The notes under the pieces were generated by a model that was not told where the DNA came from, did no database searches, and worked only from the letters and a program-made list of their open reading frames with translations. Source: Bilabrum cf. latius (Eukaryota). Taken from it: a stretch of DNA of 64,000 bases. The position numbers and the translations under genes were made by a program. Shown in pieces: positions 18,204-40,878 of this stretch (within the stretch, counting starts at the first letter, position 1; each line of letters opens with the position of its first letter). The stretch lies in contig OZ237736.1 in the NCBI GenBank assembly GCA_965178125.1, positions 682,001 to 746,000 on the forward strand. Direction: 5' to 3'.

Positions 18204-18567
18204 CTACCCGCCGCCCGCATCCCCCCTCGCCCAGCCCTAGCTGCCGTTCCTGCTCCTACCTCGAGCGAACAGTCCTCCGCTTTGCCGTGTCGCATCTAAT
18301 CCTGCACCTCGAGCGGGTACTGCGCCCAACGCGCGACCTCAATTTCAGAGACCTCATTGGCCTCACGAGTCGCACATTCGTAGCAAAGCGCTACGAACCC
18401 ATGCCGGCCGCCAGCCGAGACAACCGTCTATCATGCTTTGGGGCACTTTCAATCAAGAGTACTGCTACTATCGTTTACATGTCTACCGATGCAGTCCATG
18501 CATAGGTTCGAGTCGCTCGCTGGTGCTCGGCGCAACCTCTACCACTGGCCTGACCTCCACAGACTCA

Positions 18568-18860
18568 TCTCACACACCACATACCAGGGGGACCTCCAAT
18601 TTGGAGGTCCCCCTGGTATGTGGTGTGTGAGAGTAGGGTATTTTTTATGTACATTTTTCTTTTGTTATAAGTAATTCTTTCCATAAAACGGGTAGAGGGT
18701 GGAAATTTAAGTTGCTGAAAAATCATTTTTTTTGCAGGTGAAATTTTCAACTGCCAAAAATTACGCACTGAGTTACACTGCTACGTTTCACATCTCGGGT
18801 TCTATTCCTCTTGCAGAGGAGAGAAATTTGGGGGTCTCCATATTATTCTGCGGGGTCCCC
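18568..18860 (+). repeat. Left terminal inverted repeat (293 bp), outer 65 bp palindromic
   Basis: Reverse complement of 46405-46697; extends ~8 bp further with a 1-nt indel. 18568-18599 and 18601-18632 are 32-bp perfect inverted arms. Confidence 0.95.
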
Positions 18861-18923
18861 CACGCGGGGGATGTTCAAAAATTCATTTAATATTGCATTG
18901 AGAAATCACAGGGATTCTCATTT

Positions 18924-19589
18924 TCATTTTCCATTTTTCACTTTCATTGATTTTAATTTAATTCGCTGTTTCAACGCAGGTGCTGGTTCAGGTGCTGGTG
19001 CTGGTTCAGGTGCTGGTGCTGGTGCTGGTGCTGGTTCAGGTGCTGGTTCAGGTGCTGGTTCAGGTTCTGGTGCTGGTGCCGATCCAGATTCAGATGCTGG
19101 TGCTCCTTCACTATCTACGGTGCCTAGCATTCGTGGTTTAGAAGCATAAGGCTATGCAAAACTATGCAAGTGTTTCATAATGCTCAGCATTTCCGAACGC
19201 TACTTCTTATCCTCCTTCTGCATCTACACCATTGCATCATACTATTTCTATTGCATCTACATCATTGCAAACATCAGTTGCGTTACCTAATTAGGTTCTT
19301 GTGGTGCTGGTGCTGGTGCTGGTGCTGGTGCTGGTGCTGGTGCTGGTGCTGGTGCTTGATCAGGTTCTGCAGTTCCACCAGATTCACAAAGTGGTGATGT
19401 GCCTTCCGGCTACTTCACCACCGCATGAAATGCTCTGATTATGCTATCCGATTTCTTCCCCTCATGCCACCAATCCGTGCCAATATTGGTTTGCATCCAT
19501 TTCTTCATATCATACTCCGAAACAAGTGATTTGTAACCTTTTCCAAAGTGTTTTTGTAAATATTCTCGTGCTTTCTGTGGGTATCTCAT
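18924..19589 (-). CDS. Virophage protein of unknown function (N-terminal domain paralogous to the N-terminus of the methyltransferase fusion; Pro-Ala repeats; Gln-rich coiled coil)
   Basis: MRYPQKAREYLQKHFG..WMQTNIGTDWW; frame contains several TAG (MM*MQ*K*YDAMV*MQK) but no TAA/TGA until TGA 18924. Confidence 0.75.
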
Positions 19590-19702
19590 ACTGATATCCT
19601 CTCCCTTACATGCGCACACGAAATAGGTTCAGGGGAATTCATTTTGTTACCTAAAAGGTTCTGTATACATCTTACTGCCCAATCAAAAAAAAAGTTATTT
19701 GG

Positions 19703-19941
19703 ATGTTGTTCAGAAAAATCTCATGTTGTTCAAAATACTCGGTTTCATAAAAATTTTCAGAACTCAGCCAACTGAAAAAAATATTGATTTTCAATTTTTT
19801 TCTAAGAATGAAAAAATCTCATTTCCTTTGTTTTGAACAACATCCCTACCTTTTCCGACAACAAAACCTTTATTTTGAACAACATTTTGAACAACATAAT
19901 TATTCGTAACCAATTATTTTGAACAACATTTTGAACAACAA
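19703..19941. repeat. Cluster of TGAACAACA iterons in an AT-rich divergent intergenic region
   Basis: Two reverse copies (~19703, ~19723) and five forward copies (~19834, 19876, 19888, 19920, 19932). Confidence 0.7.
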
Positions 19942-20024
19942 CAAATAAATTGATTAATGCAGTTACTGATATCTTATTTATATTAGATTATAGGATTTTT
20001 AAAAAATCCTATAATCTAATATAA

Positions 20025-20648
20025 ATGAATTCGAATTTTAATACATGTCCTTGTTGCCAAAAACCGGTCTCAAATGAAGATCTAATTATTCAACCAGATG
20101 GTACTCACTTTTGGTATAAGAATGGTCAAATACACAGAGATGGTGATCTACCTGCAGTAGTTGGTATGAAGGGTAACTACTGGTACAAGAATGGTAAAAT
20201 ACACAGAGATGGTGATCAGCCCGCAGAAATTACATTAAATGTACGCGGATACTACAAGAATGGTCAATTACACAGAGATGGCGATCAGCCCGCGTACATG
20301 TACAATTCAGAAAATAGAAAATATTGGTATAAGAATGGCGTATTGCACAGAGATGGTGATAAACCCGCAATAATTGAAATAGATGGAGATACAAAATGGT
20401 ACAAGAATGGCAAATTACATAGAGATGGTGATAAATACGCAGTAATTAATGAATATGGAAATGAATGGTACAAGAATGGCGAATTGCACAGAGATGGTGA
20501 TAAACCCGCAATAATTGAAATAGATGGAGATACAAAATGGTACAAAAATGGTAAATTACACAGAGATGATGATAAACCCGCAGTAATTGAAGCATATGGA
20601 CGAAATGAATGGTACAAAAATGGTGTACAATACCATCCATCCATTTAA
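20025..20648 (+). CDS. Virophage repeat protein (WYKNGxLHRDGDxPA, MORN-like beta-hairpin repeats)
   Basis: About seven repeats of WYKNGKLHRDGDKPAII; N-terminal CPCC; ends TAA. Confidence 0.8.
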   Translation: MNSNFNTCPCCQKPVSNEDLIIQPDGTHFWYKNGQIHRDGDLPAVVGMKGNYWYKNGKIHRDGDQPAEITLNVRGYYKNGQLHRDGDQPAYMYNSENRKYWYKNGVLHRDGDKPAIIEIDGDTKWYKNGKLHRDGDKYAVINEYGNEWYKNGELHRDGDKPAIIEIDGDTKWYKNGKLHRDDDKPAVIEAYGRNEWYKNGVQYHPSI

Positions 20649-20733
20649 ACTAGATTGCTTTATAAAAGCTTGGAGCGGAAAAATGAACCGCGTTCACCCT
20701 ATTTCTCGCAGGTATAGGAGGGGGAGTATCACA

Positions 20734-23700
20734 ATGATATACCCTACTAAAGCACATGAATACCTATCAACACACTTTGGAACTGATTACAAAACATTAG
20801 TTTCAGAGGCTACTATAAAGCAGTGGATGCGAACACATATTGGTGCAGATTGGTGGCTTGATTACTTGAAAGCAGATAGCATTATAAAAGCGTATCATGC
20901 GGTGTTGAAGAAGCCTACAAGCTCTTTAACACTAGATGAACCCAAAACTGCTGCTACTGGTGGAGGTGCAAACCCCAAGCCCAGAGTGCAGCTTCGAGCC
21001 AAGCCCAGAGTGCAGATTCGAGCCAAACCCAAACTGCAGCTTCGAACCAAGCCCAGAGTGCAGCTTCGAGCCAAACCCAAATTGCCAGCAGTTTCACTCA
21101 AAAAGATTACAGATAAATCTATAATGCCATAGTATATGAGTTATCTTACAAGCGTTTGCGATAATAATTTAAACAAAATAATCAAAAGTACACCAACATT
21201 AAGGGTTGGAACTGATTGTAGCGGCATCGATGCACCAATCCATGCTTTGAAAATTATGAATGTGCCTTTTCAATACGAATTTGCCTCAGATATTGATGTA
21301 TCAGCTAAGGCTAGTATCAAAGGCAATCATCAACCACGCATGTTCTTTGATGATATTACAACTCGTGATCACACTCTATTACCCAAACTGGATTTGTACT
21401 GTGCTGGATTCCCTTGCCAATCATTCTCAACTTTGGGGAAACGCCAAGGATTCCATGATAGTAAAAACAGAGGCACAGTGTTTTTTCACTGTTACGAAAC
21501 CATAAAACAAACTCAACCACAAATGTTTATTCTAGAAAACGTTAAAGGACTGTTAAGCCATGATAAAGGCAAAACTTTTAAAACAATCATGGATCATCTT
21601 TCAGCATTGAAAGGTTACTATATTCATCACTAGGTTTACAATACGAAATCTTACGGATTGCCACAATCCAGAGATCGCGTTTACATCGTGGGCACTAAAG
21701 GATCGTTTGTTCCACCTAAACCCATTGCTCTACCAATTGGTATCAAAGGATTACTCGAAAAAGGTATCAATGATCCCTACTATTTCAAAACCACCGCTCA
21801 CAAGGAACAATTGATAAAGGATTGTATATCCAATGGCAAAATTGATGATCCCAAGAACGATTGGGTTATGAATTTAAATGTATCATCGTACAAAAGAACT
21901 GGAGCAAAGCTGGGAATATCTCCCTGTTTACTTGCAGGTAGTGGTGGCAACTGCACATTTTTTATCACATCACTCATGCGCAAACTAACACCTGTAGAAT
22001 ACCTAAGATTGCAGGGATTTCCTCCAGATTTTAAGATTTGTGTTAGCAGAGCACAAACATACAAACAGGCAGGTAACGCCATGTCTGTAAATGTTGTGTG
22101 CTTTATAATGAAACAATTGCTAATGGGGCTTGGTGCGAAACCCAAGATCAAGATCAACCCCAAAACCAAAATCTCACTCAAAAAGAAAAAAGGTAAATCT
22201 ATAATGAGCTCCGCAAAATCGAAACCTAAAGAAATACTAGTTAAACCTATAATAACCGATCAAACCGCACAGAAAATGGTTGGTGAATTTGTTAATGCAG
22301 ATCACTACCAGCAGGTAATTGATCATGATTGTGATTGCTACTACTATGATAAATCTGGCAAGCGCCGTGCTTTGTTTTACTTTCGCCGCAAGGTAATCCC
22401 CCAAGCGCATCTGGATACAGCACTAGATAGTTTAAAAACAGAAGCCAAAAGTGCCTCCAATACACGATCCATTGCTGGTGGCGGAATTGGCAAAGGCAAA
22501 GTACACAGCATGATTGTTGGCTACTACGATAAACCCCGAATCAGAGATAAACGAGAAATCTTAGCCAAGAAACTCGTACCCTGCAGAACTACCAGTTATA
22601 CCAGCAAACACCAATCCAAATGGAACAACTTAAAACCATTAATTAATTAGGTTGATAAGGCATACAGCGAGTTCGAACCAGAACGCCATCACGAACAGCA
22701 CGGCATGGCTAAAAAAACTCCCGATTACCAAATCAACGATACTGCATTTTCTACCATCACCGTAAATTACAACTGGCGAACCGCTTGTCACAAGGATTCA
22801 GGTGATTATCACAATGGATACAGTGCTGTAGTAGTTGCCGAGGATGGCAAGAATTCTTACAAGGGCGGATACCTGGGTTTTCCTAAGTTCGGCGTTTGTG
22901 TTGATGTTCGCCACGGCGATTTTATCTTAATAGATCCTCACCAGTTGCACTGTAATACAGAAATAGTGCCAGATGGATCAGATTGGTGCAGATTATCAAT
23001 GGTTTACTACTACCGAGAAAACATGCAAAAATGTACCCAATCCAAACCTTCTTGTGAAGCCGCCTCACAAGAATTAATTGATGTAGTTTTACCCAAACGA
23101 AAACTCGATCTTAAACTCTGGGTTCGCCCCAAAACCACAGATCTTACTGTAATTGGTGAAGTGCTTACCAGGAATTCTTACGATAAACCCAAAGTTAGTT
23201 TCAAAGTGGGATCTACACCCAAGGAGCGATGGCTAGATCTTGGTGCCAATATCGGCACATTCGCCTTACTTGCCTTATCGCGGGGGTGCTCTGTAACCTG
23301 CTATGAACCTGAACGGGATAACCTTGAAATACTACAAAAAAACCTGGAACTCAACTTTCCTAAACCTAGGGGTGGATGGAAAATTGTTGAATCAGGGGTT
23401 TCTACAAAACCCACTGGAACTCAAAAACTCTACCTGTGCAAAGGAGATTACAACAAATACAGGCATACCTTGCATCCCGTAAGAGGGCGTACAACTGTTG
23501 ATATCCCTGTAGAAAATATTTTTGAGGCTTTGGAACGGGCTGATTGCAACTGCATTAAAATGGATATCGAGGGTGCTGAAATCGAGATCCTCGAAACACT
23601 TAAACCAACAACTTACCAACGCCATGGCATCCAAAAACTGGTGTTAGAATATAGTTTTGATGTAGATAGGAGCATCCCCCGATTTCTACGCATCATCGAA

Positions 23701-23805
23701 ACCTTAAAACAAGCCTTTAAAACCGTGTTTTACACCAAAGTAAAGCCAGATCAGGCTACCTATGATTACTTTCCAGCAGCCTGTATGGTATACTGCCAGA
23801 ATTAA
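20734..23805 (+). CDS. Fusion: N-terminal domain + C5-cytosine DNA methyltransferase + TET/JBP-like 2OG-Fe(II) dioxygenase + FkbM-family methyltransferase (~1023 aa; in-frame ATGs also at 20683, 21124, 22204)
   Basis: One frame, TAG only at 21130, 21631, 22648, ends TAA. DNMT motifs TDCSGI, GFPCQSFS, ILENVKGL, GLPQSRDRVY, RKLTPVEYLRLQGFP, YKQAGNAMSVNV. Dioxygenase FSTITVNYNWRTACHKDSGD..HQLHCNT..RLSMVYYYR. FkbM WLDLGANIGTF..CYEP..IKMDIEGAE. Confidence 0.85.
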
Positions 23806-23915
23806 ATCCCATGAAAATTAAAATATTAGTGAAATGCCTAGGCATCTACTCAGAGAAATACATATTTTACTTTTAATCCGTATCAACTTAGTACGGGATT
23901 AAAAGGAAAATTACA

Positions 23916-25127
23916 TTACTTTTTCCACGTAAAAGACCATTTCTTTGTACGTGGGTTCTCTTTCCAAACTACATTATGCTTCTTTTCAAATGCCTAAACC
24001 AGTTTGGGCACATCTTCGATCATGTTTTCATAGCTGTTCCACTCTGGAACCTTGTATCCAACCCATCGAACCACAAATCCACGCTCCCCATTAACCACAC
24101 TAGGGCGCACAATACTCGAAATAATATACTAATCTGGCAAAGAAATTGGATTTTCAACCTCACCCACCTTCTGCAATTCCTCTGTAAAATATCTGGTTGG
24201 CAAACCTTCTACCTGATACGACCACGGGCTCCACGGCATACGCGGTTTTAACACCTATCGTACTGTATACACATCCTTAGACCAGTTTTCACCCCTTTTC
24301 TCATTAGATCCCCATCGCAATCGAACCCTTACTTGATCGCCCACTTTGAACCGCTACTCATTGGCACGTTCACCTGCATTTTTCTTTATTCTTTTTCTAA
24401 CTGCATCCACCCCAGAACTCTGTTTGTTCTCCAGATACTCCCTCTCTAAATTATCTGGCGATTGCTTGGTTGTATTTTGTGGCGTTTGATTGTATACCCT
24501 CAAATAGGCTGCCAAACTATTATCCCAGTTATTCACACCCGAATCCAAACGATCTGCCTTAATCATTCTCTTAATTGTTCCATTAAATCGCTCAACCAAA
24601 CCATTTGTTTGCGGCTTACCCGCTGTACTCAAGATCTATTTAATTTTCTTGCTTTTCAAAAACGCTTTGAATGCCCGATTAACAAACTCACTGCCATTAT
24701 CACTCTACAACACACTGGGTGGCTGGGGCATCTACTCTAAGATTTGTTTCAAAGCATTCAATACGGTTTGCTCTCGCTTATCGGGCATAGCAACTGCGTA
24801 AGCTTTCTTACTAAAACCATCAATGGCTGTAAGCAACCATTTCATGCCTCGTGGGGTTTCCGATGAACTCAAATCCACCAAATCTATTTGCAACTTTTTA
24901 AAAGGAGCACTAATTACCTAGCGTTTAATTGAACGAACTTTCTTGGTTGGTTTTAGCATCTACCATGTTTCTTGCCGTTGAAGAAAATCTCTAACCACAC
25001 GCCGTGGCAAATCAATGCCGTTTAACACTGCCAATTTGTATAAACGCTCCTCTCCAACAAAGGCTTTTGAACCATAATATAACTCTTTCAACTTCTATAA
25101 TTCACGTTGCTGATGCTTTGTATCCAT
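23916..25127 (-). CDS. Retroviral-type (rve) DDE integrase with C-terminal chromodomain-like region, 403 aa
   Basis: LQIDLVD, LLTAIDGFSKKAYA, VL(TAG)SDNGSEF, QTNGLVERFNGTIK, FKVGDQVR, FVVRWVGY..EWNSYENM; about ten in-frame TAG; ends TAA 23916. Confidence 0.9.
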
Positions 25128-25176
25128 TTATTGATATAATAAACCACATAAAATATTCTTATCTAATCTAGTATAT

Positions 25177-26037
25177 ATGCTTAAGCGAAAGCAAATTTTA
25201 CAATTACTGAAGATAGCCAAGAAACGCAACCCAAGGATCAAAAAATGTGTTAAGGGGTACGGAAAGTTTACCAAATCGCAATTACAAGCCGTTCTTGAGG
25301 CTCCTATGGTATTAGAAACTCTTGAACCTGAAGTTACCAGAATGGGTGGCTCACTGTTTGGCAAGTTTCGCCAAGGTTTTAACCAAGTTGTTGATAAGGC
25401 TAAGAACTTCTTTGGAGTTGATACTAAGAACTTTAATAAAACTAGCTAGCGAACACTAAAAGAATACGGTAACCGAGTTATTACCCAGATGAAAGTAGCA
25501 CGAACACCCTTAAGTTCAAGTTTAAATCGATTGCTAAACGTTCTTTCACTAGGGGCAACTAAACGAGCCAAACAAAGCTTATAGTACCATTCATTCTACC
25601 ATCTTGCAATAGCAGTAAAATTACAAGGCGTTGCTACCCCCCTTGTGGTTGAGAAAAACGAGGCTGTTAACGTTGATAAAACATTCCCCGTAAATAATCT
25701 TACTCAATTCCTAAACGTTGATCTAAATGGCAAACAAATCACTTTGAATCAACTGGTACAACAAACACTCAAATCCGTGGGCAATAATCGATTTTTCTTG
25801 TATCGTGCTTTCAATGATCGCTCAGATGCAGGTAATTGTTAGCGATTTGTTACTGATGTACTTCGATCCAATGGTTTATTAACCAGCCAATTGGATCAAT
25901 TCATCAATTAGAATGTTGAACAGGCAGCATCTACCATACCGCAGTTGTTTAAAAGGGTGGCAAATGTTGCAACCGATGTTGGTGCATTCGCTAATCGAGT
26001 AGTTGGTAGAGGTAAGAAGAAAAAGAAATAGCATTAA
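25177..26037 (+). CDS. Virophage protein with permuted papain-like (PPPDE/NlpC-P60-type) H...NCQxF motif, 286 aa
   Basis: Single frame via TAG; RTPL..LNVLSLG..FYHLAI..EKNEAVN..FFLYRAF..GNC(TAG)RFVTDVL; ends TAA. Confidence 0.6.
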
Positions 26038-26291
26038 GGCATGCTTGCTGCCAACAATTCACATATACTCTGCTTGTTCAGTGAATCCCAAGTCATAGTA
26101 ACCACTACCTTGTAAGCGGGTTCATCACCACCTGCACCTGAATGCGGCACTTGCTCAATCTTAACATCAGTACGATAGTTTGATGTGGGATCGGATTCAG
26201 GTTCAGGTTCTGGTTGAGAATTACGAATAATCTCTATTTTAGGTTGAGGTGTTGTTGGAGTTGGTTTAGTTGGGCTAGATTTTTCAGACAT
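26034..26291 (-). CDS. Small virophage hypothetical protein
   Basis: ATG to TAA, 85 aa, stop overlaps the convergent gene stop. Confidence 0.55.
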   Translation of the reverse strand: MSEKSSPTKPTPTTPQPKIEIIRNSQPEPEPESDPTSNYRTDVKIEQVPHSGAGGDEPAYKVVVTMTWDSLNKQSICELLAASMP

Positions 26292-26357
26292 CTATAACTA
26301 TCTGGAGGATTTTTTTTAAGTTAACTTTGTTTCGTTATTACTACCAAATAAAGTTAA

Positions 26358-27686
26358 TTAGTATCCACGCAAACGCCTAATACGATCCTATTGAAACTAT
26401 TTTTCTTGGGCTTCTTTGCCTTGTAACCCGGCACGGCGTTCAGATTTATTGATTCTCCGATGTGATTTGGGTGCAATTGCTTTCAATCCTTTATCACCGA
26501 TTACCTTGCGCAATGGAGCTCCAACCAATCCATCAAACAAAAATCGCCCAGCATCCTCAATGATTCCTTTGCCTTTCATATTCGATTGTTTCACAGCCTT
26601 AAATGCCTGTTTCATTGCTTCTCCACGGCTCAATTTAGGATTCTAGCGCCTCATCTATCCAGCTAAACGCAGTGCCTAGGATTGTAATGTACGATTCCAT
26701 TTACCCGATTTAGGTGCACCCATACCCTATGTACCCTCCGCTGAACCTAAGTTACCCATTGTGTTTGCGGTTAACCTATCTGGTTCTGTGGTTTGCCTAC
26801 TTGATCTGCGTCGTGCTGGTGCTGGTGCTGGTGCTGGTGCTGGTGCTGGTGCTGGTGCTGGTGCTGGTGCTGGTGCTGGTGTAGGATCATTATCGGAATC
26901 ACCGCCAGGTCCTGGTCCGCCAGGAGCAACATCAGCAGCCCGAGCACGGGCAGCACGAGGAGCTCGGGCAGCACGAGCAGGAGAACCTGCAAAACCTTGT
27001 TCCATCTATTCTGCGAGATCAGCTGCTGGTACCAACTATGGCACTGGTATTCGTGCTCCTCGTCTTCGTGCCCGTGCCCGTGCAGGTGCAGGTGCCGGTT
27101 CAGGTACTGAATCAATAATCCAAGGTTCGATATCTACTCTTCGTGGACGCTCTCCCACAGGATTTGAACCCTCCTCTGGTATTTCTCTCATTGGATCACG
27201 ATCCACACGATTGGGATTACGCTTGATTGCATACTACAATGCATCTCGAACTCCATTTTCAATTAGTAACCTTCGTATTGCCTAATTGCTTCCTCTATTA
27301 ACATTTAAACGCTTAAACTAGGCTTCTATCTCTTTAAGGCTCTTGGGCAAAATAATATCACCACTATACAAACTCACTTCTAAGGCATCTATTACTCTCT
27401 GCCTACTAGTTGCCGTTCTTGCCCTCTATAACTAGCCCAATAATGCTTTAACCCGCCCAGTTGCCTAATCATTTCTGGTACGTTCAAGTTCACTCACCAC
27501 ACCTGCCTTTCTCAATCTTTCTTGATCTTGTTGCTCTTTACGTGCTCGGTTTTCCTGCCTCACACGGCGGTTGTTTTCCTCCATGTTTTCTCTTCTTTGT
27601 TCTGCTAAACCGGAGTATCTCTCAATTGTTAGCTCTTTAAGAATCTTTCGCAACTTTTCATCGCTTTTTGCCATATATAATAGCAT
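26358..27686 (-). CDS. Arg/Ala/Pro-rich virophage protein, possible virion core protein (~440 aa)
   Basis: Fragments 26397, 26727, 27465 are co-frame with only TAG between them; ends TAA 26358; (PA)n tract, RAARA repeats, GMG/GKG motifs. Start 27686 or 27674. Confidence 0.7.
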
Positions 27687-27712
27687 TGAAAATATTTTAT
27701 ATACCTATAGTA

Positions 27713-28735
27713 ATGATTTCCACTCGACATACAAAAGATGGTGTTCCTGTTGCACTTGATATGAATCGCAATGATCCAGATGTTATATACTACAACCGCA
27801 AACCACCTGAAAATGATTCTGATTCTGATGATGATTCTGGTGATGAATCCGATATCAGTGAATCTGATCTAAGGTTGAGATACGGTGTTCGTGCCACCAG
27901 ATACCAGCGACAACTACCAGAACTAAAGAAAAAGTTTAAATAGGAAATGCGGGAAGGAAAGATCCTACATGGAAAATATAAAAGTAAAAAAGGAACGATT
28001 ATTCCGTATCCCGATCGAGATGCACGCGATTGCCGAACTGCGTACCATATAATGGGTAAAGCAGGTTCAGGTAAAACTACCTGGGTGCTAGAACAAGCCA
28101 AAATTATTAGGAAACTATTTAATAAAAAGGTGTATGTGATCAACGGCAAGGATGATGAAAAGCGATTCAAAGAAGCCAAGTTTCATACCCTCGATATCGA
28201 TGATCTTATCATTGGCGATAGTTCCGAACGAAAATATCAAGAGGCTAAACTGCGCTACAAAATGCTGGATAAGAGCGAACTAGATCCTGAGGAGGTTATT
28301 GAAATGAAACTTGCGGTTGAATCCTTGAAGCCAAAGAAAAAGATCAACTATTCGGTAACCGAAGGATTTTTGAAGCTGATCAAGAATTCTGTATGGATAT
28401 TTGATGATGTGGAAGGCGGTGAACTGCAAAACAAAGCCCTGTTCTTGATCAATTATATTCTTACCAAGGGTAGAAGTACCGAAACCGATATCTTTGTAAT
28501 TACACACTTACCATCTTGGGGTTAGAATACCCGCACTCTACACAATGAAATTAACATCTATGTAATTTTCTAGCGCAACAAACCTCGTTAGAATTAGTTT
28601 CTAATGGAAAACTATCTGAAATTTAAAGCTAAGGAGATAAAAAAGGTGAAAAGCCTGTTAAGCCGAAACGATTGGGTAGCCATAAACCAGCAACGCAATT
28701 GCTTGATATCGCCCCATCAGGTTTGTTTGATATGA
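27713..28735 (+). CDS. DNA-packaging ATPase (FtsK/HerA, A32-like), 340 aa
   Basis: Walker A GKAGSGKTT, Walker B VWIFDDVE, ILTKGRS..IFVITH, TRTLHNE; ends TGA after TAG read-through. Confidence 0.9.
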
Positions 28736-28768
28736 TCTATTTTTTTACCATTATATATATATAGCAAA

Positions 28769-29242
28769 ATGTCTGTTTGCAAAAACCTATCAGATCTTGT
28801 AGTTTGTTATGATTTAAACATCTCAGTTCAGGATTATGAGTCAATTGTTAACTCAGAGGAAAACCTAAAAAATTCAAAACCCCTTGATTCGCTTGAAACT
28901 ATTGTTGTTGATATCAAGAAAGGTGATAGAATCGCTCTGTTACACGATAATAAAGGCAAAGTGCGCTATTCAATCCCAGTTCCTAGCGCCAAACCAACTC
29001 TCAGAGAATTACTTAGAACCCTTCACAGAGAAATGCAATACCCAATTGATGTAAAAAATGAAGATTTAGTTGAAGTTATCTACGATTCGCTGAAAAACTA
29101 TAAACCATCGCTCCGCTTAAAGTACGTTACTATGTACGAAGAGGGGAAAATGCCATTGCTTAGTTGGTTTGGTGATCATACTCACTTGGAAAAAATATTT
29201 CGACGGGGGGACAAATACTTACAAATATTCCTAGGATCATGA
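28769..29242 (+). CDS. Virophage hypothetical protein, 157 aa
   Basis: Clean ATG to TGA ORF between the ATPase and the protease. Confidence 0.65.
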   Translation: MSVCKNLSDLVVCYDLNISVQDYESIVNSEENLKNSKPLDSLETIVVDIKKGDRIALLHDNKGKVRYSIPVPSAKPTLRELLRTLHREMQYPIDVKNEDLVEVIYDSLKNYKPSLRLKYVTMYEEGKMPLLSWFGDHTHLEKIFRRGDKYLQIFLGS

Positions 29243-29272
29243 ACAAATTTCTAGCATACTACTATAATCATA

Positions 29273-29815
29273 ATGGATCAGTTACTTGATAAAATTAAAT
29301 CGGGGCTCAGCCCACAACAGTTGCAACACTTGAAAGCCAATGTGCCTGTTTTTACCAACGATCAAATTGAATAGCACGGATTACCCACTGGCAAGGATCA
29401 GGATTTCGTTTTGTTTTTCCCTTTGATACGGCAAGGCAAAAACGAATCTGGGCATTACTGTGCCGTTATTCAAAGCCTCGATCCCAATCGTATCCACTAT
29501 TATGATCCATACGGATTTTTACCCCATGCAATCACTAAAACCAGCCCACAGCGAGAAGCCCTTGGCTACCTAGATCGATAGAAAGGCATCTTAGGCAAAC
29601 TAATAAATGATCATCGAACCATAGATTATTCACCATTCCCTCACCAAATCGATGATCCACAAATCTCAACCTGTGGTAGGCACTGCTTGCTACGATTAAG
29701 TAATCGGCATTTAAATCATGAACAGTACAATAAGCGATTATTACAAAAGTGTAAGCAACACAAAGTTAAGCCCGATGTGTTTGTTACCTTGTTTGAACAA
29801 TTCAGACCCATGTGA
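29273..29815 (+). CDS. Maturation cysteine protease (adenain/Ulp1-like), 180 aa; absent from the ORF track
   Basis: SGHYCA (His), YYDPYG (Asp), HQ..ISTCGRHC (oxyanion Gln, catalytic Cys); two in-frame TAG; ends TGA. Confidence 0.9.
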
Positions 29816-29843
29816 TTTATTTCTCATTTAAACTATATCTCAA

Positions 29844-30752
29844 ATGAGCAATAAAACCTACCAGTATGTAAATCTACGCTACTTCAACCCAGAAACTACC
29901 ACTGCCACTCGAACTTTGTTAGAGGAACAGCGTTCTGGCAACATTTTAGATGATAAAATGTATAAACTCAGTGTGGATCGATGGAATATCGAACAAGCTG
30001 TATTTCCAGTATTTGAACCTAATCCTAAGCTAACTTATACTGTTAACATTCGTGATCAGGCTTCAAGCACTGTGAGTTCAGCCAATGTTAACTTTGGCAG
30101 CAACAAGTTTGTTTACAATATGGCAGAAGTGGTGGCGGCTATAAACATTGCTATAGCGACCGCTTGTGCTGCTCACTCATCTCCAGTTTCACCCGCGGAT
30201 TTTCCTGAGTTAACTTACGATGGCATTCTATTTTTTATCGAAAGCACCAGCAACTTTCGGGATTTAACCACAGGATACGATTTGGGATTCAATGAGCACT
30301 TGTTTGCCATGTTCCATACCTTTCCCAGAATTCCTTAGGATACATTGGAGAATCCCTATTTTTTCTTGGATGTTGATGTAGTGCAACAGCCTGAATCCAC
30401 TCTTGAGGCAATAGTTCCTGTGAAACGAATTGAAATTGAGGGTACGTTACCCATGATCAGCGAGTTGTTGCCAAATTCAGTTGAATCAGCCGAAGGCTAG
30501 TTTTCTACTCGGGTCGAAAACATTATTACCGATTTCAATTTCTTTCCAAGTAACGGCAGCCACCTTCAATCAATTACTTATAGTGCTGGTGGCAACCACC
30601 GATGGGCAACAGTAACTGGAAACCAGTTCAACAACATTCAACTCAGGTTTTACTGGTTGGATAGTAAAGGTGTTAAGTACGATGTGAAGCCTCGTGCCCG
30701 AACCTCTGTTTCGGCAAAATTAGCATTTGTGGAGGTGAGTGAGCTAAATTAA
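29844..30752 (+). CDS. Minor capsid (penton) protein, 302 aa
   Basis: YKLSVDRWNI, GFNEHLF, IITDF, NIQLRFYWLDSKG..SVSAKLAF, typical of virophage pentons; directly upstream of the MCP; ends TAA. Confidence 0.8.
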
Positions 30753-30783
30753 GAAATAATTATTTTATCAGTTTAAATCATAA

Positions 30784-32511
30784 ATGTCTCAAACCTTAAG
30801 ACAAAGTTTACCAGTAAGTGTGGCAGTTGATCCAAAGTACAACTTCCTCGATCCTTCCAGAGTAAAACAACAGGTAGAAGCAGGTAACACCAAGATTGGT
30901 TACAACCGCTTAACCTTTACTGATCCTGTTGCAAATGGTGCAACCTTGAATATGACTATAAATCCAGTAAAAGGTGATTTCAATCAACCTACTTTAAGAT
31001 ACATTCAACGAGTTCGAGTGGCTAAGGCAAATGCTGCTGCCCTTGCTCTAGCAGATTTAAAGAGCAGAGTTGGTGTTAAACCTTTCCCCTTGGCTAGAAT
31101 GTTTGATCGTACCATTGTGGATCACAATGGTTCTACTTGGGTGAGTGAGAGTTACTAGGAAAGCAAAGAGTTTGCTCATAACCACGATCCAGAGATTGGT
31201 TACCGAATGAGCCCTGCTCCTGTTCCTGATAAAAACACTGCATATAGCCGTGATTATCTCAGTGATCCACTCCGCGTTTCATTAGATACAATTGATTAGA
31301 ACGAATCCCGTGGTTTCGGCAACCGTTACTCTGTATACTATGTTGGTCCAGCTGCTGGCAACTCACACGAATTCCTCATTATTCTGGAGGAGCGCCTATG
31401 GAACAAGTTTTTCCCTTTCAAGGATGCCTATCCTAATCCTTACAAGAACCTGCAACCGTTCGATCTCAAACTTGAGATTGGTTCTAATGGATTATAGCGC
31501 ATATGGTCTGCCTCAACTGTCGGCGGACAGGATTTAGCATTTACCCAAGTTGGTAACCCATCCCTGTTTCTGGATTTCACTATCGATACACCTGCGCTTG
31601 AAGTTCCTCAACCAAACAGAATTGTGCTAAACTCAGTACATCGCCAAAAGCGTTAGGAACGCCCTAACCAGGCTATTCCAGCCGCTGCAAACGGTGTGCC
31701 AGGCAGCATTGAGCACCAGATGTAGTCTTATGATTTCGCATACACACCAGAAATGTTGCTGTGTTACGTGGAACGCGATCCTGTGGCTGGAAGCAACTAG
31801 CCTGATTAGTTTTTACCCATTTCTGCCATCAACCTAACCATCAATGGTGAACAAGATATTGGCAGGTTGATTTCCCAGTATGAACTCTGGCAAATGAGCA
31901 CCAAAAACGGATATAACGGCAGATTCGGGCATTTCGCTGGTTTAATCTAGGATTTCTCAGTTGGTGCCAACCGAATTTACGGCAACGGTTGCATGTTGGC
32001 AATAAAACCATCCCAATTGCCTCTGCCTCAGGAAACCCAAGGTGGTGTGAATGCTAGATTCTCTATCTAGGCTACTGTTACTATCCAGAACCCCACTGGT
32101 GCTGCAGTGGCAGCTGGTAGTTACCGCTTATGGATGATTCTAGCCAACTCCGAAGCCAATTACCTCAAAGACGGTTTGATGGAGAGCCGTGTGTTACTTG
32201 CCGATCCAGTTAAGAGCCTAACCGCTACTAATGTTACTTACAAAGATGATGGAGTATCTGCCTCAATCGTGGGTGGAAGGCGTGGTTTCTTCGGTCGACT
32301 GTGGAACGGAATCAAGAAAGCAGCCCCAGTGCTTAAAGAGGTTTCTAAAGTTGCCCGTAACCTACCTATTGTAAAGAATTATGTTGGTGATAATACCGCT
32401 GTGGGTAAAGTTGCCAAAGCAGTGGGTGCTGGAAAAAGGGGTAAAGGCGTAAATCGGGTGGCTGGTAAGAGCGTTTCTACTCAAGCACTTTTAAGCAAAC
32501 TTGGAATGTAA
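30784..32511 (+). CDS. Major capsid protein (virophage double jelly-roll), 575 aa
   Basis: One frame with nine TAG and no TAA/TGA; FPLARM, PD(Q)FLPI, SQYELWQMSTKNG, then IVGG followed by a basic amphipathic tail; size typical of virophage MCPs. Confidence 0.85.
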
Positions 32512-32534
32512 ATAAATCTAAGATCTAATAGTAT

Positions 32535-33428
32535 ATGAACAACAAATCTTATTAGAACTTAAGTGCACTTAAGTACCTGGGGCAACCAATTAATATCACT
32601 GGTTACAATTTTGCACGACCCGTACTTAAACTGTTTAACGATATCAAATTTCCCGATCGAACCTTGAGATTAGCAGGAACTGCTCGGTTCAAGGTTCTTT
32701 CGTTGTTTGCCTCTGATATTGATTTATTTCAACTGCTTAACAAAAAGGATATCCCGCACTTTGCCACACACATTTCCAACTTGGCAAAAAAAATGGCACC
32801 ATCCAAACAAGCCAACCATGCCACCTTTGTTGAATTTAAATCAGGTGGAAGGCATTACACCAGAAAAGAAATGGCAAACCTCTCAACTAACCAGAAACTA
32901 AAGCAGGAAATCGAGCACAACATCCATCATGATCCGTTCAACAAGGTAGATTTGATTTTTTATGATGGCAAAACTTACGAGGAAATCACCATCGTGTACC
33001 AATTTGAGGAACTTGCCGATGTAGCAACCATTCTACAAAGCCTTGTTAAGGATGCCAACAAGTATATTAGTTCAGGCAATTTATACAAAGCCACCAAACG
33101 ATTGCACAACATCTCCCGTTTGCAAGGCGAACAACCCAACTCACCCGGTCTCAAATCTCTGGAACAGATTATTACCAATCCTATTCTTTCCACTCTCAAC
33201 CTTGCTAAGAGCTAGTTGGAGGCTTACTTGCGAGTACCTACCGGATTTCGCCACAGCACTGCACTCGAATACCTTAAGCAAAGAGTGGGTAAGGTGATGA
33301 AACCCAGATCACTGCGGACACTTGCCAAGCATTTCAAGAATAACACCAACAAATCAATTAAACTAGCCATTACTTAGCTTAAGCGATATTTGAATCAACT
33401 AAGCAGATCCATGATTTAGCAAAAATAA
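32535..33428 (+). CDS. Virophage protein with possible nucleotidyltransferase motif, 297 aa
   Basis: LAGT..FASDIDL and later KVDLI resemble the pol-beta-type G[S/T]..DxD..D signature; ends TAA after TAG read-through. Confidence 0.55.
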
Positions 33429-33447
33429 AATCATGCGAAATACTATA

Positions 33448-33726
33448 ATGCTAAGTAACTGGAGCAAATTTATGAAAGAACTGTGGTCCAAAGTTAAGGG
33501 CTAGATGAAGTATATCGATGCCGTAAGAATGGCTAAAGAACAAGGATTGTATGATGCTTGGCTATCTAAGCATGGATTATCACGTGCTCCCAAGAAACGC
33601 ACTTACAAACGCAAACGCAAGGGTGGGCAGATGGTTTAGGATTAGATGGGTATGGGGTTAGTTGAGGATTAGATGGGCATGGGCTTGGTTGAAGGCGGTG
33701 CTAGCACTCTAAATGATCTATTCTGA
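33448..33726 (+). CDS. Small basic protein with GG/GMG motifs, possible core protein, 92 aa
   Basis: MLSNWSKFMKELW..KRKRKGG..(Q)MGMGLVED(Q)MGMGLVEGG; open only with TAG as sense; ends TGA. Confidence 0.6.
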
Positions 33727-33752
33727 TCTAAAAAATTCCTAACGTAAGATAT

Positions 33753-34385
33753 ATGTCTTGCGATAAACAAGAATTGTATGAATAGTTTAAGAAAATCGGG
33801 CAGCAAAAGTTTAGTGCTCCCCACCAACAGCAAATCTATCTACAATATATACGCTCAGTATTGTTTCCTGCTGGTGATCCTGAACCTGATTCGGAATCTG
33901 ATAGCGATACTGATAGTGATAGCGAGAGTGATTCCAAATTAATTATCGAATCGAAACCTGCTACTCCTCCTGCAGTACCCGCTTCACCACAACCCAAACC
34001 TAAACCTGAGCCAAAATCAAAACCCGAACCCGAACCCGAACCCGAACCCGAACCCGAACCCGAACCCGAACCTGATCTCAGCCCACCTAAACTGGAACGC
34101 CAAAAAAGGGTTGTTATTGTGCCTGGTTTTGGTGATCCTGATCCTGAACCCGAACCCGAACCAGTGGTTCAAAAGAGTGATCGTGAGGATTTCAGATTTA
34201 TGGTTCGAGATGGATCTGAAAAAGTGTATTTCGGCACTCCCACCATTCTAACCCTAAAAGAAAACATCGATGGCAAGGTTTGTAGCCAACGCAAAGCGGT
34301 TTCTAGAGTTAATCGATATTTAGCCTAGTTCAACTAGGCAACACCAAGAGGCAAATGGGAGCACCAACACTATCTCAATCAATAA
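33753..34385 (+). CDS. Acidic/Pro-Glu repeat virophage protein, 210 aa
   Basis: ATG 33753 in frame with ORF 33861; (PE)n from (CCCGAA)n; ends TAA. Confidence 0.6.
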
Positions 34386-34417
34386 AATAATTATCCATAC
34401 TTAAGTTATAACAAAGT

Positions 34418-34792
34418 ATGCACAATTATGAATATATTGAAATTAAACCATCTCAAATCCATGGACATGGCGTGTTTGCTCGAGGCAAAATTCCCAAAGG
34501 CACTAAATTAGCCTATTTTTACGGCATACCCATGAAACCCAAAGATATCATGCTCAAATACGGCAACTACCGTTTTACCTATCGGCGCCCATTTCAAAGC
34601 ACATGGATTTGTAGCAGACATACCCCAAATCTAATCAATTTTGTTAACTCTGTGGGCTTTGGTAAATCCAAAGGAATGAAAGCAAATGTTATTCTCAAAA
34701 ACAGATGGCTAGTTCCTACTCGTGATATCCAAGCTGGTGAAGAATTACTGCTCGAATACCCAAAAGGATACTGGAAGCACGGCGATGATTAA
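34418..34792 (+). CDS. Stand-alone viral SET-domain protein-lysine methyltransferase, 124 aa
   Basis: IKPSQIHGHGVFA..IPKGT, NFVNS, TRDIQAGEELLLEY..YW. Confidence 0.85.
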   Translation: MHNYEYIEIKPSQIHGHGVFARGKIPKGTKLAYFYGIPMKPKDIMLKYGNYRFTYRRPFQSTWICSRHTPNLINFVNSVGFGKSKGMKANVILKNRWLVPTRDIQAGEELLLEYPKGYWKHGDD

Positions 34793-34832
34793 ATTTAGTG
34801 AAATTAAAAAACAATAAATTTAATTAATCCGT

Positions 34833-35483
34833 TTAGGCTGTTGGTGGGTACATCATCCAGTTAAACTGGAAATCGTTGCCTCCATGTGCGCCTGTAAGAT
34901 GCACTGTAAATTCACCATCACCCGCAGTTACGTGGGTAAAATCAACTCCGCCTGTGGGTACACTTGTGGGTGTTAGATGCACGTGATGATCAGATGTGCA
35001 GCCTGCTGCAGCCACAACTAGTGTTTGACCACCTCCGCTCCAGGTTTCCTATCCTCTTAGTGCAGGTACGTTGTTTGCAGTTACATCGCCCTAAACTATG
35101 ATGTTACCAGATCCAGATCCACCTGTAATGCGAACACCTGCACCGGCTGAATTGGCTCCAAATCTTACCTCGCCCGGGCTAAAGAACATCTATCCTGTGC
35201 CCTGATCGCCCCATCCTATGATACCGAAGTTACCCTCACTGAAACTTGAATCGCCCTCGATGCTTCTGGCAACCACATTTCCACCTAATTCCATATTACC
35301 TGTTGAACTTACTGCAAGAAGTTGAGTGGTTACATCGGATGCCACATTCTCAGAGTTAATTATAAAATTTCCACCTTTAGCTGAAAACGAAGCCCCTGAA
35401 GTAGAGCCTGATGTTTCAGTGCAAAGTAGTTTGTTTACGTAGATTTGTTCATCGTTTGGTTCGTTAAAAGTACTAGCTGACAT
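34833..35483 (-). CDS. Gly-rich beta-structured protein, candidate fibre/spike, 216 aa
   Basis: Fragments 34833 and 35190 joined through three TAG; ends TAA; GNVVA/GNIIV repeats and a compact C-terminal FNW domain. Confidence 0.55.
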
Positions 35484-35530
35484 AGCTTATAACTTAAACT
35501 ACAAAAAAATAATTTAATTCTTAATCCTAT

Positions 35531-36151
35531 ATGGTAGAACCCAACACCGTAATTATAGGGGCATCTGTTGCCCCATGGATTTACAAAGCAGGTTGCATGT
35601 TTTTAGATTGGCTCTAGAAGCCCCGCTCACAACGCCGAAAGTTAGTGCTTCTTCTTCCTTAGAAAGCACTTAAAAGCACTATATGCAAACGCTTAACCAG
35701 TAGCAACCCCAATGTTCGTTTATATGATTTAGATGAAGTTGTATTAGCCCGAGCATCTGCCGAAGATGTAGTTAAACTTAAGTTGGCTGAGCACTGCGAT
35801 AACAACGCTTCCGAGTTGCTCAGGTATAAATACGTTTAGAGTGCCATTGATGAAATTAAAGCAACTTGGTTAAAGGATCGCAATCACCGTGCTATTTTTG
35901 TTACCAGTGATGCTTCTGTAGTTGCCTCCATCTTCAAACCCACCTCGATTGGTGTTGCTATGCCCAGCGAACAATTTCACCAGCAACTTATCCAAAAATT
36001 AAGCCCTGAGGAGCAAACTGTTGCCAACCGATCACATGCCCAGTTTAGAGATTTATTTTATCGCACCGATGATCCATGTTCGGTCTACGATTCACTGCAA
36101 GATCTAGCAAATATCATCATTGCTCACTATGGCTTGAACTACAGACCTTAA
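35531..36151 (+). CDS. Virophage hypothetical protein with degenerate P-loop kinase-like pattern, 206 aa
   Basis: Open with TAG as sense; LVLLLP(Q)KALKSTICKRL..LYDLDE; ends TAA. Confidence 0.55.
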
Positions 36152-36202
36152 GCCTTTAAGCCTTTAAGAATAATTATTTTCTCCACCAGGATTATAGCAA
36201 AT

Positions 36203-36622
36203 ATGCCAAAACCACTCAAAGTAGTAATAAAGAAAAGAGAACCCGCTCCTAGCCACAACCCAATCGCCTTGATTCACCCCGAAACCTCGAATACCGTTCA
36301 GGAACTGCACCAGTAGTACACCGAATCGTTCGAGCAGAACCAGCAGGAAATCAAGAACCTCAAACTAGAAGCCCGTCGGTTGCTACGCAAGGTACGCAAA
36401 TAGTGCCCTGAAATTCATGAACAGATTAGAGAACTTCGAACTAACCTCAAATAGCAAAAACACAACCTAGAACAACTACAACAGGAAATCAAAGCGCAAT
36501 CTGATTTGCTTCGATCGAGTGCACCCGAGGAATACCAAAGGCTGGATAAGATTCGAGAAGAATCCAAAAAGTTACAAAAGCAACTCCAATACGATCAAAA
36601 TGTTGCCGATTTTCTAAATTAA
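36203..36622 (+). CDS. Coiled-coil protein, 139 aa
   Basis: Gln/Glu/Lys heptad-rich, three TAG in Gln-rich context; ends TAA. Confidence 0.65.
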
Positions 36623-36630
36623 TTTCTATT

Positions 36631-36707
36631 TTTACCTTTAATCCCGTACTAAATTGATACGGATTAAATGCAAAATATTCTCTGTCTAGATACTCACACA
36701 GAGAAAA
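36631..36707. terminator. Double-hairpin element (copies at 37150-37226 and, inverted and partial, ~23850-23905); putative transcription end/polyadenylation hairpin
   Basis: TTTAATCCCGTA-N9-TACGGATTAAA plus TCTCTG...CAGAGA; all copies lie just downstream of stop codons. Confidence 0.55.
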
Positions 36708-36732
36708 ATCCTGTTTTTAAAATACATGAATA

Positions 36733-37080
36733 TTAAATTAAACCAATGTTTGGTTTTATACCGCCCCCGATCAGTTTGTAAACATCTACGTGATCTAAAT
36801 GCGGTTTCTGCAAATGACCCCTAACTCCCAACACAATTAGATTTTCCACCAATCGAATGCGAATGCTAAAAGCACCCGATTTGTGAGTTTGTCGCTTTGC
36901 AATCTAGATATCATTATCAATATGCTGTTGGTTCAACGGAGATGAGTACACTGTTTCATAAACAGTATTTCCAGCCTCGTGCTACACCTTTTTCCCATTT
37001 CGTGCTATTTCAACAAACAAATCCTAGATTTGTTCCATTCGAATGCTTTCAATTCCTTTACTACTATCGCTATTGTTCAT
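36733..37080 (-). CDS. Virophage hypothetical protein, 115 aa
   Basis: MNNSDSSKGIESIRMEQI..; three TAG, ends TAA; lies between the two hairpin repeats. Confidence 0.55.
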
Positions 37081-37227
37081 TTATATTTTACCATAGATAA
37101 TTCCAAATCATATTATTCCAATATGATTCCATTCCCATTTCCATTCCCATTTACCTTTAATCCCGTACTAAATTGATACGGATTAAATGCAAAATAATCT
37201 CTGGCTAGATACTCACCCAGAGAAAAC

Positions 37228-37515
37228 TCAATTTGAATCAACTTTCAGCCATTCCCATGGTTTCCTCATGGGTAGCCAATCTACTGGTACCTCCTCCACC
37301 TTGTAGTGCTTTGATACACCTTCTTCAGCATTCTTAACCTTATAAGTTCCTTTCTTGATTAGGTTAACTGTTAACCTACTGATTGGATGCAATTTAAACA
37401 AATCCGAATGCATTTCTGCCAACAGCTTTAGTACCGTATTGCAGTTTCTAACCTAATACACATGCTAACTTTTATCTAGTTCTATCACCTTTAACTTTAC
37501 ATTATGTTTACTCAT
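37228..37515 (-). CDS. Virophage hypothetical protein, 95 aa
   Basis: MSKHNVKLKVIELDKS(Q)HVY(Q).. joins ORF 37228-37422; ends TGA. Confidence 0.55.
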
Positions 37516-37590
37516 TTCTATAATATATCCTATATTTTTTAATTCATTTTTTTAAAAAATAGTTTAAGAACTTTCCTAACTCTATACTAT

Positions 37591-37878: not shown

Positions 37879-37880
37879 AC

Positions 37881-38211: not shown

Positions 38212-38281
38212 CACAAGTTAATTTGATTATAATCAACTTTTTAAAAAACTGATTTAAAAAAATTTAGTGGAATATAATATA

Positions 38282-40873: not shown

Positions 40874-40878
40874 AAAAT

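Follow-up and report, generated by a model that had tools for sequence, protein, structure and literature searches.

In the base J pathway thymine is the substrate, and JBP is followed by a glucosyltransferase. ALKBH8 unites a 2-oxoglutarate (2OG) dioxygenase and an S-adenosylmethionine (SAM) methyltransferase in one protein that acts on a pyrimidine C5 side chain, at the wobble uridine of transfer RNA (tRNA). In phages, pairs of a C5-methyltransferase and a TET enzyme make 5-hydroxymethylcytosine (5hmC), which is tailored further (Burke et al., 2021, PMC8256090; this and the following publications are cited from parts of their text). Here we describe a gene from a stretch of 64,000 nucleotides (nt) of Bilabrum cf. 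latius DNA (contig OZ237736.1, positions 682,001 to 746,000; hereafter the window). The gene is located in an integrated virophage-like element, and its single reading frame encodes a predicted C5-cytosine DNA methyltransferase, a TET/JBP-type dioxygenase and an FkbM-family methyltransferase. Judged from these domains, it would be a single-chain virophage version of the viral C5-methyltransferase/TET/tailoring pathway, with an FkbM cap replacing the sugar. As in the phage clusters, the methyltransferase is predicted to write 5-methylcytosine (5mC), the TET-like enzyme to give post-replicative 5hmC and a further enzyme to decorate it. The phage clusters, however, consist of separate genes in a bacterial host and use glycosyltransferase tailoring, whereas the window fusion is one polypeptide of a eukaryotic virophage with FkbM-type tailoring and an extra orphan domain at its N-terminus. 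ALKBH8 has an AlkB-type dioxygenase and a Trm9-type methyltransferase, and its homology to the fusion extends only to superfamily folds.

ParB-dependent and ParB-independent thymine dioxygenases have been described from phages (PMC13229309, PNAS 2026). The ParB pathways use the same dioxygenase superfamily as the TET domain of the window, and gp17 to gp19 of the pelagiphage HTVC112P form such a cluster. Unlike in these pathways, no ParB was found among the open reading frames (ORFs) of the virophage with Pfam and NCBIfam profiles, the module is fused, and it is linked to a C5-methylase. Tet-like dioxygenases also occur in Polinton-like viruses (Bellas & Sommaruga, 2026, bioRxiv 10.64898/2026.06.19.733378), and a TET of an endogenous giant virus of Chlamydomonas was proposed to keep the virus unmethylated (bioRxiv 10.64898/2026.10.09.758095). 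Like the element in the window, these are integrating eukaryotic double-stranded DNA viruses with Tet-like and methyltransferase genes; unlike in the fusion, the genes are separate and an anti-silencing demethylase role is proposed. The association of TET with FkbM has already been counted in print, since the supplement of PMC13229309 tabulates FkbM: its file 10 lists an O-methyltransferase (FkbM; pfam Methyltransf_21) on 6.2-7.0% of 5mYOX contigs. A reported product of the FkbM partner was not found in the parts of the literature available to us. A count of FkbM in bioRxiv 10.64898/2026.06.19.733378 gave 0, and both O-methyl and FkbM are absent from the text of a glycosyltransferase preprint. 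Among the matches listed no paper contained both Tet_JBP and Methyltransf_21, and searches for literature joining FkbM, JBP and 5-hydroxymethylcytosine, or FkbM, TET and hypermodification, found none. The TET-FkbM core is widespread, and in these sources it has been counted but not characterised.

A preliminary description of the window had joined four ORF fragments into one gene by reading TAG as glutamine, and with this reading they do form one frame of 1023 codons that ends in TAA. In translation table 11 the frame is interrupted by three TAGs (codons 133, 300, and 639), and in the standard code it falls into the pieces 20587-21132, 21136-21633, 21658-22650, and 22705-23805. The run free of TAA and TGA starts at 20587 and comprises 1072 codons, with a chance probability of ~2e-22 at the base composition of the element. 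ATG 20734 is the likely start of the fusion, because the paralogue of its N-terminal domain opens with the same residues; the C-terminus lies at the same end point as in homologues.

It is certain that TAG is a sense codon here. Codons in frames of at least 200 increase from 1349 to 6267 if TAG is read as sense, compared to 2883 for TAA and 1784 for TGA. The eukaryotic genes in the flanks of the element (e.g., 57615-63956(-), 13950-15986(+), and 7467-9614(+)), encoding importin-beta, Sir2, SelO, and a NEK-like kinase of 2114 residues with 17 TAGs, carry in-frame TAGs, so the host reads TAG as sense; TAA and TGA serve as stops at gene ends. Within the element, in-frame TAGs were observed in the genes for the MCP_V20_C capsid protein (9), the rve integrase (10), the DUF5906 primase-helicase (12), a P-loop ATPase and a SET-domain protein. 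The meaning glutamine is supported indirectly: in the sister gene on the metagenome contig L018, two of eight TAGs fall on alignment columns with Q in 25 of 34 other sequences. The three TAGs of the fusion itself fall on variable columns, and those of the host Sir2 and kinase genes are at positions uninformative for codon meaning. No tRNA genes, for example for a CUA suppressor, were found in the window, L018 or the related contig L036.

All motifs quoted in the preliminary description are present in the translated fusion, and each of its three domain labels scored above curated Pfam or NCBIfam cut-offs. DNA_methylase (PF00145) matched residues 164-462 with 203.6 bits (cut-off 22) and TIGR00675 (dcm) reached 221.8 bits (cut-off 100.65). 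For the second half, Tet_JBP (PF12851) gave 86.5 bits (cut-off 34.9), Methyltransf_21 (PF05050) 32.2 bits (cut-off 22.7) and TIGR01444 (fkbM_fam) 60 (cut-off 37.7). The methylase contains GFPCQ (Cys228), ENV (268-270), QSRDR, and AGNAM, and PCQ, ENV, QxRxR, and GN are conserved across a 15-sequence methylase alignment. The TET domain contains ACHKDSGD (His686, Asp688), HQLHCNT (His739), and CRLSMVYYYR (Arg753), and these four residues are invariant columns in alignments of 14, 35, and 9 sequences. WLDLGANIG (833-841) and KMDIEGAE (942-949) of the FkbM domain are conserved columns of the TET-FkbM alignments.

An AlphaFold2 model of the TET-FkbM half, based on the 35-sequence alignment, had a mean predicted local distance difference test (pLDDT) of 90.7 and a predicted template modelling score (pTM) of 0.56, the latter because the two domains are joined by a short low-confidence stretch. 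In a Foldseek search against the PDB, the ranks down to 4nm6 (listed rank 21) were human TET2, CMD1, NgTET1, and CcTet with E ~3e-10, and the first non-TET match, at rank 27, was the FkbM methyltransferase 2py6 (E 1e-6). The TET domain is therefore modelled with a double-stranded beta-helix fold like that of solved TETs. Compared to most homologues it has a gap of ~33 residues, which is a lineage feature since the L018 protein has the same gap; damage is ruled out, as P0099 and P0107 share it too.

The stretch or part of it is contained in seven public runs from four studies, and contigs of four runs were aligned to the window; these data are contigs and show presence, not absence. Runs X4 (organism A) and X5 (organism B) each contain a contig that passes from position 20979 to 22143 through 8 nt of other sequence. 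The net loss of 1155 nt removes exactly 385 codons, so the reading frame is kept in this methylase-less form, which encodes a computed 638 residues (adaptor, linker, and TET-FkbM). Methylase contigs identical to the window occur at depths of 46.5 and 46.1 in X4 and of 2 in X5. At 23114-23256, X4 contains two haplotypes, a window-type one at depth 45.5 and one with 14 differences at depth 79.4, which fits a window-type copy with methylase beside a commoner copy without. In the window's own form, the link between methylase and TET is given by the window assembly and the matching depths 46.5, 46.1, and 45.5. Run X6 (organism C) has a contig spanning 21040-22131 with 32 differences, followed by letters starting with TAA, a stop exactly at the end point of stand-alone methylases; 22138-23775 was covered by no X6 contig, where contigs show presence only. 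From the X4, X5, and X6 forms, three architectures occur behind one adaptor: TET-FkbM, methylase, and both. Carriage of the methylase cassette is thus facultative. The listed differences between copies (there are 118 further ones) include 28 substitutions in the ORF, of which 18 are synonymous; in the methylase part 10 of 11 are synonymous; the synonymous excess therefore indicates purifying selection. A decaying pseudogene is ruled out by this excess, the intact motifs and the frame-keeping variants. The data show a real, selectively maintained modular gene in an integrated virophage.

Within the orphan N-terminal domain, hereafter the adaptor, residues 1-60 match the start of the divergent paralogue nearby (Table 1) at 53% identity (E 1e-28). 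No other homologue of it was found, including among shorter proteins, and the methylase-less variant retains it. The two 33-nt junction elements are 88% identical, each has a Lys/Pro-rich stretch on its 5' side, and both carry a TCTATA-type motif that also lies directly upstream of many other genes of the element. Mavirus-type virophages have TCTA late promoters. The methylase is a cassette that was recombined in behind a shared linker, of which a second copy follows it. The region 5' of ATG 20734 is GC-richer, in contrast to the AT-rich, TCTA-type sequence that precedes the other genes; the likeness of its motif spans ~70 nt and recurs 5' of a recombinase-like ORF at 41677.

The best solved relative of the methylase is M.HhaI (128 bits; chain residues 59-326), the GCGC enzyme, whose alignment includes the recognition region, while M.HaeIII aligns to the catalytic part only. 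Identity to M.HhaI is low in the recognition region, however, and motif I differs: it reads GTDCSGIDAP, a family variant, GTDCSG(I/L)(E/D)xP, found in 15 of 15 aligned sequences. The closest proteins in phmmer are stand-alone methylases of ~330-357 residues with ~50% identity. A single-sequence query gave no close relatives, and an alignment query of IMG/VR gave 79 methylase loci of at most 56% identity, mostly in giant-virus metagenome-assembled genomes (MAGs). The element contains 19 GCGC sites. The hypermodification line proposed in the preliminary description would thus be narrowed: if the methylase is HhaI-like, only its sites (e.g., these 19) would be touched, not the whole genome.

The distribution of the second half was assessed with several searches. 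A word-indexed search of 5.8 billion proteins returned 70 matches to the fusion; 28 were two-domain Tet_JBP+FkbM proteins of 560-640 residues with 41-51% identity and the remainder were methylases. An exhaustive phmmer search of 1.84 billion representatives gave 39,909 matches, of which the best 150 were checked for three domains. The top four (419-460 bits, 542-593 residues) are too short for three domains, and a three-domain protein would outscore them. No such protein was present in the best 150 of the 39,909 matches or in the 70 word-search matches, and a Pfam check of 15 longer phmmer matches found none with methylase and TET together. Standard-code gene calling would split such a fusion in any TAG-recoded organism. 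The novelty claimed for the three-domain fusion holds in that none was found elsewhere, and the gene appears unique in the searched collections; it does not extend to the TET+FkbM part, which is widespread and already tabulated.

Screening by tblastn of 97 loci, 17 from IMG/VR and the best 80 of 311 metagenome relatives, found TET+FkbM in 46, FkbM only in 41, TET only in 8, all three domains in one (L076) and FkbM with a weak methylase in one (L052). Both TET and FkbM are thus present in 47 of the 97 loci, many of which are giant-virus MAGs, and they are arranged as fusions, as FkbM-then-TET neighbours or as divergent neighbours; in a pelagiphage they are overlapping genes. These arrangements suggest that the two are functionally coupled. 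TET+FkbM is an old, widespread two-domain module, not a virophage invention. The nearest relatives are L018, which is 69% identical along the entire half, and L036, 75% identical along the part that it covers. Both are low-GC metagenome contigs that need TAG as sense and carry giant-virus genes (for an Rpb2 whose 1335 codons include 14 TAGs, for a Ras GTPase and for a 2-cysteine adaptor domain); the module is common to the virophage and to TAG-recoded giant-virus contigs. These identities, the shared gap, and the methylase relatives in giant-virus MAGs speak for an origin shared with giant viruses. It has been suggested before that some giant-virus MAGs use alternative codes (PMC13524828).

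Two further loci bear on the partner domains. L076 is a 22-kb standard-code viral contig (26% GC) on which TET(-), FkbM(+), and C5-methylase(-) are adjacent, separate genes; over 12.4 kb of the contig, their neighbours are a DUF5906 helicase, an A32-type ATPase, a ResT/TelK-like telomere resolvase and a D12 adenine methylase. In the sister protein P0157, Tet_JBP precedes a TET-associated glycosyltransferase (TAGT); the TET domains of P0157 and of the fusion share 45% identity. TAGT there stands in the same place after the dioxygenase as FkbM in the window, although it would transfer a glycosyl and not, as predicted for the window, a methyl group. TAGT takes the place of FkbM, and this analogy points to the hydroxymethyl group as the target of the partner domain. 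In HTVC112P (MN698246.1), found by tblastn of GenBank phages, gp17 (ParB-like), gp18 (TET-like), and gp19 (FkbM) are overlapping consecutive genes (L177 5007-6603); gp18 is annotated as a DnaJ chaperone or putative SNF2 DNA repair protein and is 38% identical to the window TET domain.

FkbM-family enzymes transfer methyl groups to oxygen. On the reading that we propose, and to which we give an even chance, writer, oxidiser, and capper act in this order on one chain and mark the virophage DNA like that of its helper. The methylase domain would place 5mC in a short GC-rich target, the tethered dioxygenase would hydroxylate its methyl group to 5hmC, and the FkbM domain would cap the new hydroxyl by O-methylation. 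The product would be a post-replicative 5-methoxymethyl pyrimidine at specific sites only. The virophage would thereby mark its own DNA as the helper giant virus marks its DNA, and the shared mark may let it pass modification-reading nucleases of the virus factory or the host. We infer the reaction order and the product from the fusion, the L076 cluster, the TAGT swap in P0157, and the phage precedent.

The element contains no GGCC site where 35-43 are expected (z -6.5), and counts in the flanks are normal; AGCT (37 vs 80 expected) and CCGG (11 vs 31 expected) are reduced as well. The GGCC depletion looks like restriction-site avoidance, and it fits a conflict of the host/virus/virophage type. 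No nuclease or restriction-enzyme profiles were found among the unassigned virophage ORFs with Pfam and NCBIfam. CpG observed/expected is 0.85 in the flanks. In a broader form that leaves the base open, TET+FkbM would make undescribed 5-methoxymethyl-cytosine and/or -uracil, the virophage would copy the mark of its helper, recombination of a site-specific C5-methylase behind the common adaptor and linker would have given it a self-contained enzyme that writes, oxidises, and caps, and the loss of GGCC would be a trace of nuclease conflict; we put this forward tentatively, as somewhat less probable than its opposite.

Several observations weigh against the proposed pathway, and they are given with the alternatives that they favour. 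The strongest alternative, possible but rather unlikely in our estimate, is that TET+FkbM acts on thymine, converting T to 5-hydroxymethyluracil (5hmU) and then to 5-methoxymethyl-uracil, and that the methylase is separate protective cargo on the shared adaptor and linker. The complete HTVC112P genome (32,478 bp) encodes ParB-TET-FkbM and lacks PF00145. In the available parts of PMC13229309, a C5-methyltransferase accompanies only ~6% of the 5mYOX pathways mined (section 12) and 5hmU is inferred for most; ParB-linked or neighbour-methylase-lacking enzymes are assigned to thymine oxidation, and the activities of two tested enzymes towards T and towards 5mC were comparable. The in-frame variant lacking the methylase predominates (depth 108.6 vs ~46 in X4, 7.9 vs ~2 in X5), and in organism C the N-terminal part and the methylase stand alone and end in TAA. 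No methylase match was detected within the 8-10 kb flanks of 95 of the 97 TET/FkbM loci, nor TET or FkbM within 8 kb at any of the 79 methylase loci. Many of the TET/FkbM loci are short contigs, however, and partner genes of giant viruses need not be neighbours; among five fragmentary records of TET/FkbM-bearing viruses, two (G002 and G003) have a C5-methylase elsewhere. The three activities are, moreover, linked twice independently, in the fusion and in the L076 cluster, and the structural neighbours of the TET domain are all 5mC enzymes, although no thymine dioxygenase was among the Foldseek matches listed. The HxDxGD stretch is invariant between methylase-linked and methylase-free contexts, so the sequence gives no handle on the substrate. 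The fusion and L076 point towards 5mC, HTVC112P and the methylase-less variant towards T or both; the strongest counter-argument is that the module occurs mostly without a methylase, also in one complete phage genome, so that its native substrate may be thymine or both 5-methylpyrimidines. The path from C to 5mC to 5hmC in the preliminary description is therefore not secure, given the methylase-free pelagiphage, the methylase loci without TET or FkbM, and phage enzymes that also oxidise T.

Improbable in our view is an anti-silencing eraser, in which the dioxygenase would strip the element of 5mC written by the host and an FkbM cap would keep the product from being re-read. The element is integrated in the host genome, the upstream motif of the fusion is non-viral-looking and shared with the recombinase-like gene, and such a role was proposed by Bellas & Sommaruga (2026, bioRxiv 10.64898/2026.06.19.733378) and in the punuivirus preprint. 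A 5mC writer fused to its own eraser fits poorly, however, and the module is also present in lytic-type giant-virus contigs and in a pelagiphage, where host silencing is irrelevant.

We assign a similarly low probability to the view that the fusion is not one protein, with internal promoters and ATGs (Met131, Met491) giving shorter products or the junction being an assembly join. Each enzyme module is preceded by a promoter-like 33-nt element that ends in ATG and is similar to sequence 5' of other genes in the element; shorter products may therefore be made in addition, and variants with either module alone exist. Among the records listed (there are 34 further ones), no contig spans the junction of methylase and TET (22032-22143) as it stands in the window. 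The modules are not separated by TAA or TGA, though, and transcripts from Met131 or earlier therefore encode the methylase fused to TET-FkbM. Likewise, the methylase-less variant stays in frame, the X4 depths tie the methylase contigs to the window-type downstream haplotype, and the shared repeat (~40-70 nt, 62-88% identity) is short for a mis-join.

The acceptors of characterised FkbM-family enzymes are hydroxyl groups on sugars and macrolides. That FkbM here methylates another target, be it a sugar added by a glycosyltransferase in trans, the carboxyl of 5-carboxylcytosine (5caC) or a non-DNA substrate, is very improbable: eukaryotic TETs do oxidise on to 5caC (PMC13229309), but phage TETs stall at 5hmC (PMC8256090, PMC13229309), the tight fusion with TET, found at hundreds of loci, speaks for a DNA substrate common to both, and a Pfam and NCBIfam profile search of the ORFs of the element found no glycosyltransferase, as the preliminary description had also noted.

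The virophage context given in that description was borne out by the capsid, integrase, and primase-helicase genes. GC content in the element is 0.36-0.44, compared to ~0.6 in the flanks, and the element is delimited by the GGCC-free zone, which takes in the GC-rich right end (41600-42992). The capsid gene is of the Sputnik V20 type (MCP_V20_C, 56.1 bits, cut-off 27); close relatives of its protein were found at 0 loci in viral contigs. The P-loop ATPase reached 16.5 bits for Pox_A32, under the cut-off of 22.8, and the cysteine protease and penton are labelled by position and size only, without profile match. The virophage is apparently intact. The position of its nearest TET-FkbM relatives on TAG-recoded giant-virus contigs is an indirect hint that it may depend on a giant virus. 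Coordinates of the features are collected in Table 1.

Table 1. Features of the fusion gene, its element and the flanks (positions in the window)
Feature	Position	Strand	Basis or remark
Fusion ORF	20734..23805	+	TAG=Q translation: 1023 residues, then TAA
In-frame TAG, codon 133	21130..21132	+	Translation
In-frame TAG, codon 300	21631..21633	+	Q at column in 2/14 homologues
In-frame TAG, codon 639	22648..22650	+	Translation
N-terminal orphan adaptor domain, residues 1-82	20734..20979	+	Paralogue; variant joint at 20979
Lys/Pro-rich repeat linker 1, residues 82-117	20977..21084	+	About four 8-residue repeats
Junction element 1, 33 nt	21094..21126	+	Ends in ATG of Met131
C5-cytosine DNA methyltransferase domain, residues 131-466	21124..22131	+	PF00145, TIGR00675, M.HhaI
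Lys/Pro-rich linker 2, residues 467-480	22132..22173	+	Stand-alone methylases stop just before
Junction element 2, 33 nt	22174..22206	+	Ends in ATG of Met491
TET/JBP-type Fe(II)/2OG 5-methylpyrimidine dioxygenase domain	22204..23040	+	PF12851, core residues 616-762
FkbM-family SAM methyltransferase domain	23062..23802	+	PF05050, core residues 835-992
Upstream motif	20670..20708	+	82% identical over 39 nt to 41551-41589
Paralogue with adaptor domain	18924..19619	-	Divergent ORF; Pro/Ala- and Gln-rich tails
Hairpin motif between fusion and convergent integrase gene	23862..23913	.	Repeat search
Integrated virophage-like element, ~24.4 kb	18548..42992	.	Low GC, viral genes, GGCC-free zone
Six-ORF family, part 1	9825-13115, 16206-18329, 46988-49207	-	Shared motif
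Six-ORF family, part 2	50167-52689, 52731-53951, 54152-57289	-	Shared motif

Immediately 5' of the fusion gene, ORF 20025-20648(+) consists of tandem repeats of ~23 residues (WYKNGxLHRDGDxPA) with weak MORN_2 similarity. The hairpin on the other side of the gene is a putative terminator; its 52-nt arm recurs at 36627-36678 and 37150-37196. A perfect palindrome (32+32 nt, 18568-18632) lies exactly on the left GC boundary of the element, and a terminal inverted repeat pairing the left with the right end was not found. The GGCC-free zone at the right end contains ORF 41677-42963(+) (GC ~0.56, 6 TAGs), with a Lys/Pro/Leu repeat in its C-terminal part and a stretch that, in our impression, recalls tyrosine recombinases; it has no Pfam or NCBIfam match. 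Direct repeats of ~310 nt (37867-38177 and 40865-41174; 85-93% identical) bracket the primase-helicase gene in a cassette-like manner. The virophage also encodes a SET-domain protein of 124 residues (34418-34792, plus strand; PF00856, 24.8 bits). On both sides of the element, six long GC-rich ORFs share an N-terminal motif (…KPWFP… then …(T/C)K(W/Y)(L/M)…AG…(M/L)P..L) and have Ser/Gly-rich tails; a Pfam search of them gave zero matches. They form a multi-copy family around the insertion.

If the chemistry proposed here is true, the fusion gene would be the key to a large uncharacterised family of TET+FkbM enzymes, which it ties to a 5mC writer, and HTVC112P offers a cultured system with the same TET+FkbM pair. 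A new post-replicative DNA base would be predicted, carrying a methyl ether cap rather than a sugar, and a single chain that writes, oxidises, and caps could then serve as a tool enzyme. Within the virophage family, DNA-modification cassettes are shuffled behind a common adaptor. The module is 69-75% identical between the virophage and giant-virus contigs of the same TAG-sense code, which bears on the survival of virophages in giant-virus factories. On the broader, more tentative reading, a 5-methoxymethyl module would be common to giant viruses, virophages, and marine pelagiphages, and the mark would act as a molecular password.

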